NCBI RefSeq assembly: GCF_003334305.1 | Contig: NZ_QOWS01000086.1 | Length of the DNA stretch: 298 nucleotides | Direction: 5' to 3' (one strand) | Source: Escherichia coli | GTDB taxonomy: Bacteria; Pseudomonadota; Gammaproteobacteria; Enterobacterales; Enterobacteriaceae | Shown here: positions 112 to 298 of the stretch, one piece after another | Position numbering within the stretch: position 1 is the first letter of the stretch | Layout: each line of letters opens with the position of its first letter | The notes under the pieces: generated by a model | Databases searched by the model: none | Seen by the model: only the letters and a program-made list of their open reading frames with translations | What the model was told of the DNA's origin: nothing | Made by a program: the position numbers and the translations under genes

Positions 112-128
112 CCAATCTTTAAGATTGG
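112..128. repeat. Perfect 7-bp inverted repeat (ccaatct / agattgg) with 3-nt loop, overlapping the CCA of the tRNA-like fragment
   Basis: Seen in sequence: 112-118 ccaatct pairs with 122-128 agattgg, loop 119-121 tta. In the transcript it is CCAAUCU-UAA-AGAUUGG, whose first three nucleotides are the CCA of the pseudo 3' end. A second copy of aaagatt at 94-100 can pair with aatcttt at 114-120, giving a mutually exclusive alternative stem. Confidence 0.35.
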
Positions 129-143
129 TGTGTCGTGCAGGAT
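124..143 (-). repeat. tRNA-Lys 3'-end-like fragment (degenerate partial copy of T-stem 3' strand + acceptor 3' strand + CCA) inside the spacer
   Basis: Seen in sequence: 124-143 attggtgtgtcgtgcaggat versus 222-241 attggtgggtcgtgcaggat, 19/20 identical with a single t/g difference at 131. Similarity is lost beyond 144: gactcgc versus tcgaacc in the real gene. On the transcribed strand it reads ATCCTGCACGACACACCAAT, against ATCCTGCACGACCCACCAAT at the real 3' end. No intact cloverleaf can be built around it, so it is not a functional tRNA. Confidence 0.6.
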
Positions 144-168
144 GACTCGCTTCGCTTGCCCTACGGGC

Positions 169-184
169 CGTTGCTGGCGCAACG
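169..184. repeat. GC-rich 6-bp inverted repeat (cgttgc / gcaacg) with 4-nt loop
   Basis: Seen in sequence: 169-174 cgttgc pairs with 179-184 gcaacg, loop 175-178 tggc. No U-tract follows on either strand, so it is not an intrinsic terminator. Confidence 0.35.
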
Positions 185-197
185 TTATCCTTCACGC

Positions 198-220
198 TTA
201 ACATCTGAGTTTGATGTTAA
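198..220. repeat. Perfect 8-bp inverted repeat (ttaacatc / gatgttaa) with 7-nt loop, AU-rich, beginning 4 nt after the CCA end of the upstream tRNA in transcript orientation
   Basis: Seen in sequence: 198-205 ttaacatc is the exact reverse complement of 213-220 gatgttaa, with loop 206-212 tgagttt. In the minus-strand transcript this is UUAACAUC-AAACUCA-GAUGUUAA, 3 nt after the CCA of the 224-298 tRNA. Function is not determinable from sequence. Confidence 0.4.
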
Positions 221-223
221 AAT

Positions 224-298
224 TGGTGGGTCGTGCAGGATTCGAACCTGCGACCAATTGATTAAAAGTCAACTGCTCTACCAACTGAGCTAACGACC
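224..298 (-). tRNA. lysY: tRNA-Lys (anticodon UUU), 75 of 76 nt present; 5'-terminal G truncated by window edge
   Basis: Seen in sequence: 223-298 is identical base for base to 1-76, so 224-298 is the same tRNA from the encoded CCA (224-226, tgg on plus) through tRNA nucleotide 2. Nucleotide 1 would lie at position 299, outside the window. Anticodon at 264-266 (aaa on plus = UUU). The paralog symbol is tentative, as for the first copy: this is the upstream gene of the pair in the transcribed orientation. Confidence 0.94.

Follow-up and report, generated by a model that had tools for sequence, protein, structure and literature searches.

A near-copy of the tRNA-Lys 3' end between lysY and lysZ of Escherichia coli as the 3'-terminal repeat of an already catalogued tRNA-linked repeat

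Why does the spacer between two intact tRNA genes contain a near-copy of the end of those very genes? The question arises from a window of 298 nucleotides from Escherichia coli (the window being the whole stretch of DNA analysed here), in which ARAGORN places one tRNA-Lys(UUU) gene at 2-77 and a second, identical one at 224-299, both on the minus strand. The window is consequently the reverse complement of the transcript, and its genes and spacer parts described below are located on the minus strand. According to the locus annotation, the upstream gene (224-298, cut by the window end; Rfam tRNA, 71.1 bits) occupies the lysY position, and the downstream gene (2-77; Rfam tRNA, 79.2 bits) the lysZ position. 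Across its whole length, the window matches the lysY-lysZ interval of many complete E. coli genomes at 100% identity. The lysT operon is a single transcript (PMC4176162), and its locus is flanked on one side by tolB, pal and cpoB, with nadA, pnuC and zitB also near. No promoter-like sites were found in the window. The sole terminator-like match was rejected, as it is on the non-transcribed strand and equals the P2 hairpin described below, and so was a tpr-like small protein, since the open reading frames of the window are all of 54 amino acids or less, unsupported, and none is conserved by the design of the element.

The 3' end of tRNA-Lys, ATCCTGCACGACCCACCA, is present exactly at 2-19 and 224-241, the latter being the last 18 nt of the upstream tRNA-Lys and the template of the copy, and with one mismatch at 126-143 (ATCCTGCACGACACACCA). 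A chance origin of the copy is ruled out, as none of 200 dinucleotide-preserving shuffles yields any match to the tRNA 3' end. The original prediction had described 124-143 as a near-copy of the tRNA-Lys 3' end, in agreement with our data, with 19 of 20 positions identical to 222-241. A repeat finder widens the match to 25 nt, 119-143 against 217-241 (23/25), so that the 7 nt past the CCA are also similar. The mismatch in the 18-nt copy is located at window position 131, where the plus strand has t and the RNA accordingly A instead of C. In K-12 the copy in the same spacer reads ACCCACCA and is exact (18/18), as compared to 17/18 for the window allele. Whether the t/g substitution is fixed had been left as a question, and the answer is negative. 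A 63-nt segment identical to the window, substitution included, occurs in 1411 of 5426 complete E. coli genomes, and the K-12 version of this segment in 980 genomes of the same set, i.e. the substitution is a common strain polymorphism. It is placed in the predicted unpaired tail of the element, and the window and K-12 alleles are predicted to fold identically. About one in four complete E. coli genomes retain the substitution, so that a perfectly matching tail is not a strict requirement.

Judged by its sequence, the fragment is the 3'-terminal hallmark of a tRNA-linked repeat (TLR), a class already catalogued in E. coli. As recounted in PMC8144298, TLRs were first described by Egan and Landy in 1978, and Rudd listed 22 of them at ten loci in K-12 in 1999. 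By definition, they are situated in tRNA or rRNA operons and share their final 18-19 bp with the 3' end of the gene that directly precedes them (PMC8144298). The strain table of the same work lists the TLRs of the lysT locus as rtTWYZQ (PMC8144298), and the window element is hence the catalogued K-12 TLR that follows lysY. In conjunction, the Rfam family RtT (RF00391; gathering score 45) reaches 51.7 bits over 126-292 (minus strand) if the upstream tRNA is part of the query, in an alignment that places the 5' half of the model on the tRNA body. With the spacer by itself, RtT scores 38.0 bits (E 2.2e-6), below the gathering score, and this match spans model positions 46-130, which identifies the spacer element as a short-form RtT relative without the 5' domain. 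It is literally true, as previously stated, that nothing tRNA-like lies 5' of the fragment, in that ARAGORN finds no tRNA there. The label 'orphan' is nevertheless inappropriate, as a conserved element, recognised by Rfam RtT, has the fragment as its final 18 nt.

This short-form TLR/RtT-like element comprises 71 nt at 126-196, as delimited by the Rfam match, the homology to Lys and Tyr elements, the fold and pair counts, and is predicted to consist of a closing helix, P1, around three small hairpins, followed by an 8-nt single-stranded tail. In the predicted fold, the 5' strand of P1 (CGUGAAGGAU, 187-196) has the initial 10 nt of the copy as its partner, in agreement with the pair counts. It is followed by the P2 hairpin (CGUUGC-N4-GCAACG, 169-184), a part of the core common to all TLRs, by the P3 hairpin of the shared core (GCCC-GUA-GGGC, 158-168), and by the mini-hairpin P4 (149-155), placed by alignment and pair counts, which in the window reads GC-GAA-GC. 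The 18-nt copy at 126-143, established by repeat search, shuffles and fold, is thus split into the 3' strand of P1 (AUCCUGCACG, 134-143) and the unpaired, CCA-ended tail (ACACACCA, 126-133), with 9 of the 10 P1 positions paired between CGUGAAGGAU and AUCCUGCACG in the window. Upstream of the element, fold and spacer alignment define a variable 5' part (197-223), which opens A/U-rich directly behind the tRNA CCA (AUUUUAAC...) and is predicted to form a hairpin at about 198-221; in the spacer alignment, only the spacers of lysW and lysY have this part in common. The other 48 nt of the spacer (78-125), delimited by the 25-nt repeat and the fold, represent the 5' leader of the downstream tRNA. The first 7 nt of this leader, AUCUUAA (119-125), resemble the AUUUUAA found after the real tRNA-Lys and are a candidate A/U-rich endonuclease site.

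The predicted fold is supported by comparison across elements. A stretch of 98 nt, which starts behind the tRNA CCA and ends with the copy, has a fold of z = -3.6. Pair counts were obtained from an alignment of 26 different short-form elements, of either the Lys or the Arg(ACG) type, in which 94.6% of cells are paired, compared to 28-50% with the partners slid, and the observed covariation score is reached by none of 500 shuffles. P2 is 98.7% paired with pairs that hardly vary, and P3 99% paired and nearly invariant, so that the support for P3 derives from conservation and not from covariation. The closing helix is 88.8% paired over the 26 sequences, with three of its ten pairs differing in both bases between the Lys type and the Arg type, and P4 has one pair changed on both sides (pair 46-55: GC 10, AU 8, CG 1, UA 1, UG 1); elsewhere P4 is longer and covaries (GAC/GUC, GGC/GCC, GCC/GGC, GACGC/GCGUC). 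Also in the Tyr type, the 5' strand of P1 is complementary to the copy (GGGGAAGGAU/AUCCUUCCCC, 10/10), pairing is retained with the Budvicia tRNA-Tyr variant (GGAGAAGG/CCUUCUCC), and the strand likewise tracks the tRNA-Arg variant of Hafnia and Yersinia. Comparative support for the closing helix thus appears good but not conclusive, because the independent events are few and the sequences related. Significant covariation in the Rfam RtT family has been reported in an independent study (bioRxiv 10.1101/2020.02.04.933952). Three elements (L023, ~2748-2800; L025, minus, ~3442-3500; and the third copy of L059, minus, ~5823-5880) keep the 10-nt helix strand intact with the 8-nt tail replaced by unrelated sequence, which suggests that helix strand and tail are under different constraints. 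These data already bear on the view that the copy is a recombination by-product with no role at the RNA level, originating from tandem duplication or unequal crossing-over with the junction in the tRNA 3' end, homogenised by short-tract gene conversion and representing neutral or selfish spacer DNA. For the closing helix and P4 to change in a compensatory manner, the folded strand must be under selection, and the retention of the helix strand in elements that have lost their tail is likewise difficult to reconcile with such an origin.

The element is not confined to the lysY-lysZ spacer. In the lysT locus of strain RM9131 and of K-12, a homologous element ending in ATCCTGCACGACCCACCA is present in every spacer that follows a tRNA-Lys gene, i.e. 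after lysT, lysW, lysY, lysZ and the last gene, and Rfam finds five elements in the K-12 locus. Alignment with four elements of the tyrT locus reveals a shared core, AACGUUGC-loop-GCAACG, GNCCCGNAGGG and GAGU(C/A)AUCC, in which AACG..GC..GC.ACG.CCCG.AGGG and GAGU.AUCC are invariant, with the final 13 nt being those of tRNA-Tyr in the tyrT-locus set and those of tRNA-Lys in the Lys set. A scan with the core pattern over one representative genome per species, with host tRNAs assigned by ARAGORN, returned 120 loci; chance matches in unrelated phyla and a dispersed Alcanivorax repeat were left out of the results. The upstream tRNAs are Lys(UUU), Tyr(GUA), Arg(ACG), Arg(CCG) and Pro(UGG), and the genera include Escherichia, Citrobacter, Enterobacter, Klebsiella, Pluralibacter, Pantoea, Hafnia, Yersinia, Budvicia and Acerihabitans, among others. 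With the fragment recurring at orthologous and paralogous loci of many Enterobacterales, the concern that the similarity might be coincidental or lineage-specific noise, absent from the other spacers or from orthologous loci, falls away. Among the 73 elements with an upstream tRNA in range, representing 11 distinct tRNA 3' ends, the last 18 nt of that tRNA are repeated exactly in 60 and with at most one mismatch in 68. All eight elements that adjoin a species-specific tRNA variant carry the variant, and positions of the tail outside the helix track the tRNA as well (L019, L020, L114). From the 68 matches and the eight variants we infer that the copy follows its tRNA through evolution, the opposite of decay. 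Sequences of other kinds also match or resemble the core, namely the dispersed repeat of Alcanivorax sp. 24 (L035-L049), tandem hairpin repeats without a tRNA tail in Pectobacterium (L071), and hairpin modules of Alteromonadales (Arsukibacterium and Alishewanella; L109-L112, L116).

The same core hairpins (GAACGUUGCGAAGCAACGGCCCGGAGGG) are also found downstream of 5S rRNA genes, where they are preceded by a 5S-like GAGAGU(A/G)GGAC and followed by a copy of the 5S 3' end, AACUGCCAGGCAUCAAAU (L017, 80-231; L075, ~240-470; L065, minus, ~1-200; L124, minus, 2230-2400, the K-12 rrF). The variant of K-12 rrfF (CCAGACAT; CCAGACAU) is mirrored in the repeat downstream of this gene. Rfam RtT misses the 5S-linked elements scanned with it (L017, L065, L097), which correspond to the published rrA/rrB/rrF TLRs. 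Between rrfD and thrV, the 5S-linked TLR is a presence/absence polymorphism, present in 572 of 5426 E. coli genomes. The site is empty in K-12 (L124, 2656-2700), with a 12-nt spacer only, and at the filled site (L017, 60-240) the borders are formed by direct repeats that comprise some 20 nt of 5S 3' end and trailer.

Long forms of the element carry, 5' of the core, the 5' strand of the T-stem and TTCGA, as observed for Lys (GCAGGUUCGA), Tyr (AAGGUUCGA) and Arg (GGAAGUUCGA) elements (L003, 1354-1509; L002, minus, 1267-1444; L052, 609-773; L069, minus, 120-281; L090, minus, 1742-1910). Because of these parts, they can be read as the 3' portion of a tRNA with the core inserted between TTCGA and AUCC; the short form of the window is without the T-stem strand and TTCGA. 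In two Citrobacter genomes (L006, minus, ~9240-9440; L018, minus, ~1460-1660), a tRNA-Tyr-like 5' body with a mutated D arm and the anticodon loop GCA joins the TLR core at AAGGUUCGA, and the tail after AUCCUU is decayed; these fusions look like recombinants of tRNA-Tyr and a long-form TLR. Furthermore, a second core-like unit, AACAACGCG..GCGUUGG.CCG.AGGGCGAG, is nested in the Lys long form upstream of the regular core (L009, minus, ~80-260; L030, minus, ~50-230). The T-loop-split long forms, the Citrobacter fusion, the nested core and the filled and empty rrfD-thrV sites together hint that TLR cores are, or were, small mobile modules that insert in the 3' regions of stable-RNA genes, the 'copy' then being the displaced original 3' end. 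Insertion would take place in the T loop of a tRNA or the 3' helix region of 5S rRNA, and the 3' end of the gene would be regenerated. We consider this improbable, since no movement is shown and recombination between repeats explains the same facts.

The long forms also resemble the 3' portion of a tRNA interrupted in the T loop, with the cognate T-stem 5' strand and TTCGA, and in this respect, as in the single substitution of the window copy, they are compatible with the fragment being a decaying remnant of a tRNA-Lys gene copy, i.e. a pseudogene fragment. The original prediction had favoured such a decayed remnant as the likeliest origin, a ranking that is not upheld by the conservation of the copy. 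Progressive decay is not seen, the exact matches and carried variants given above being its reverse, and in the very same spacer K-12 has an exact copy. Moreover, the rest of the spacer is homologous to elements beside other tRNAs and 5S rRNA and not to tRNA-Lys. ARAGORN detects no cloverleaf in 78-223, and the similarity to tRNA-Lys is limited to the 18 nt and 7 nt of trailer. Finally, the spacer segment that serves as partner of the copy's first 10 nt changes to match the type of tRNA, as expected of a maintained element and not of a decaying relic. A pseudogene origin is therefore very unlikely.

Recombination in the array is a separate matter. The lysT locus has six tRNA genes in the source-type strain (L001, 2408-3453) and seven in K-12 (L003, 255-1509); the extra K-12 tRNA-Lys gene is lysQ, and the unit by which the arrays differ is one tRNA-Lys plus TLR, with a spacer of the lysZ-lysQ type. 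Unequal recombination between repeated units thus probably shapes the lysT array, and hence its copy number and not decay; of the earlier suggestion of a remnant left by unequal recombination, the recombination part stands. The terminator after the last tRNA-Lys of the locus is present twice, the second copy following the terminal TLR. It had further been considered that the fragment is a relic of an att duplication (attR-like), left by an integrase that inserted at the tRNA 3' end. The layout is formally alike, with gene, insert and copy of the gene's 3' end in this order, and the rrfD-thrV polymorphism of the 5S-linked element is bounded by direct repeats. Nevertheless, no integrase or phage genes are present within 3 kb on either side, with tolB-pal-cpoB and nadA-pnuC as flanks, and the 'insert' between the repeats measures only about 80 nt. 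There are five units in one operon, and the elements are orthologously placed across genera. The core is also found beside at least six different stable-RNA genes, which is not what a site-specific integrase would target. An att origin is, in our assessment, extremely improbable.

Based on these comparisons, we regard it as probable, though well short of certain, that this TLR, a short-form relative of RtT, has its tRNA-like end processed by the tRNA 3'-end machinery, and that its copy is kept by recombination or conversion, possibly together with selection. The spacer is co-transcribed with the tRNAs, and the tail of the 71-nt element ends in the ACCA of the tRNA. Stem, CCA tail and A/U-rich trailer would then recreate a tRNA-type 3' processing site, and because the element ends like a tRNA, it is presumably processed by this machinery at window position 126. 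An endonucleolytic cut just downstream of the copy, for which RNase E has been proposed, would be followed by exonucleolytic trimming to the CCA at 126, whereby the spacer may be freed as an RNA of its own and parted from the leader that precedes the downstream tRNA. Recombination or gene conversion among the repeated units, possibly aided by selection, would hold the copy identical to the tRNA; gene conversion is indicated because the tail outside the helix tracks the tRNA, which the helix model leaves unexplained. RNase E recognition is what the authors of PMC8144298 propose as the function of the repeat, based on the 3' end of RrB, which maps 3 nt after the 5S repeat (PMC8144298). In the K-12 annotation, RttR starts 8 nt past the CCA of tyrV, and its 3' end coincides with the CCA of the repeat copy in tyrT. 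The notion of a mimic for processing enzymes, placed last as speculative in the original prediction, is thus a proposal of the literature (PMC8144298) and fits the 3' end of RttR, so that the ranking of the three readings is not retained. A minihelix mimic recognised by RNase P was set aside on sequence grounds, the CCA being 8 nt, and not 1 nt, from the helix end.

Experimental work on the operon is available. RNase P, working from the 3' side, and not RNase E is the main processing enzyme of the lysT operon (PMC4176162). With RNase P inactive, cuts by RNase E occur in the lysY-lysZ interval and upstream of lysZ, at sites that were not mapped to the nucleotide (PMC4176162). Northern probes for the lysY-lysZ spacer reportedly detected only large precursors, in mutant strains, and a stable small RNA in the wild type is not mentioned (PMC4176162). 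A K-12 derivative deleted for all 22 TLRs has been built (PMC8144298), hence TLRs are not essential. They are stated to have no known function, and the effect on the stringent response, the sole functional claim for RtT, was withdrawn (PMC8144298). The dispensability, the withdrawn claim, the small RNA not reported for the wild type and the tracking of the tRNA by the tail lend substantial weight to the view that the copy is a by-product of recombination, in agreement with the arrays of one to three tyrT repeats, the variable number of tRNAs in the lysT locus and the presence of the rrfD-thrV element in only a minority of E. coli genomes. Against it, besides the compensatory changes and the retained helix strands, RttR and RrB are discrete RNAs with ends set by the repeat, and the core is kept from Escherichia to Hafnia, Budvicia and Yersinia. 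On balance, we deem a mere by-product a serious, though less likely, alternative.

Under either the processing-signal reading that we prefer or this alternative, the feature is real, correctly located and already known, and the window contains no new kind of element. The element class, its 18-19-nt hallmark repeat and even the lysY copy are already present in the literature and in K-12 catalogues. For annotation, the lesson is that a copy of a tRNA 3' end in an enterobacterial tRNA or rRNA spacer represents a TLR/RtT-type end, and not a pseudogene fragment or att scar. RefSeq labels some TLR/RtT-type elements only; in the source-type genome, the terminal element is the only one of the lysT locus labelled 'RtT sRNA'. 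The data on the copy that tracks its tRNA and on helix covariation would be useful for testing the idea of a processing signal.

Compared to known systems, the window element agrees with the K-12 TLRs in location, in the lysT operon right behind tRNA-Lys, in its 3' repeat (17/18 in the window, 18/18 in K-12), in the core shared with the aligned Lys and Tyr elements, and in being listed among the 22 K-12 elements; it departs from the K-12 lysT set by the one substitution of its allele and by one tRNA-Lys/TLR unit fewer in the locus. Relative to RtT/RttR of the tyrT operon (RF00391; Bosl and Kersten 1991), the Lys element has a homologous core and closing helix, and in both the CCA-ended 3' end copies that of the upstream tRNA. 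The RtT closing helix, in which a 5' strand is paired with the tRNA-derived 3' strand, is present with three pairs changed on both sides. In contrast, the RtT 5' domain (positions 1-45, a T-arm-like hairpin), which occurs in the long forms after tyrT/tyrV and after the final tRNA-Lys, is absent from the window spacer, and so is any tpr-like open reading frame. The current version of the CoCoNuT preprint no longer mentions RtT. RrA, RrB and RrF, located between the dual terminators of rrnA, rrnB and rrnD (PMC8144298), share the core and the 3'-copy design, whereas their upstream gene is 5S rRNA and not a tRNA; they contain GGA motifs and show in vitro binding to both CsrA and Hfq, with TLRs of tRNA operons scoring <0.01 for CsrA binding (PMC8144298). 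Of the regulatory RNAs derived from tRNA spacers, the 3'ETS-leuZ sponge (Lalaouna et al. 2015, as cited in PMC8144298), going by that citation, is similar in being a by-product of a tRNA precursor that could persist as an RNA, and differs in that it is without sequence relation to the lysY-lysZ spacer. The closest counterparts of the window element are hence the TLRs of the lysT locus itself.
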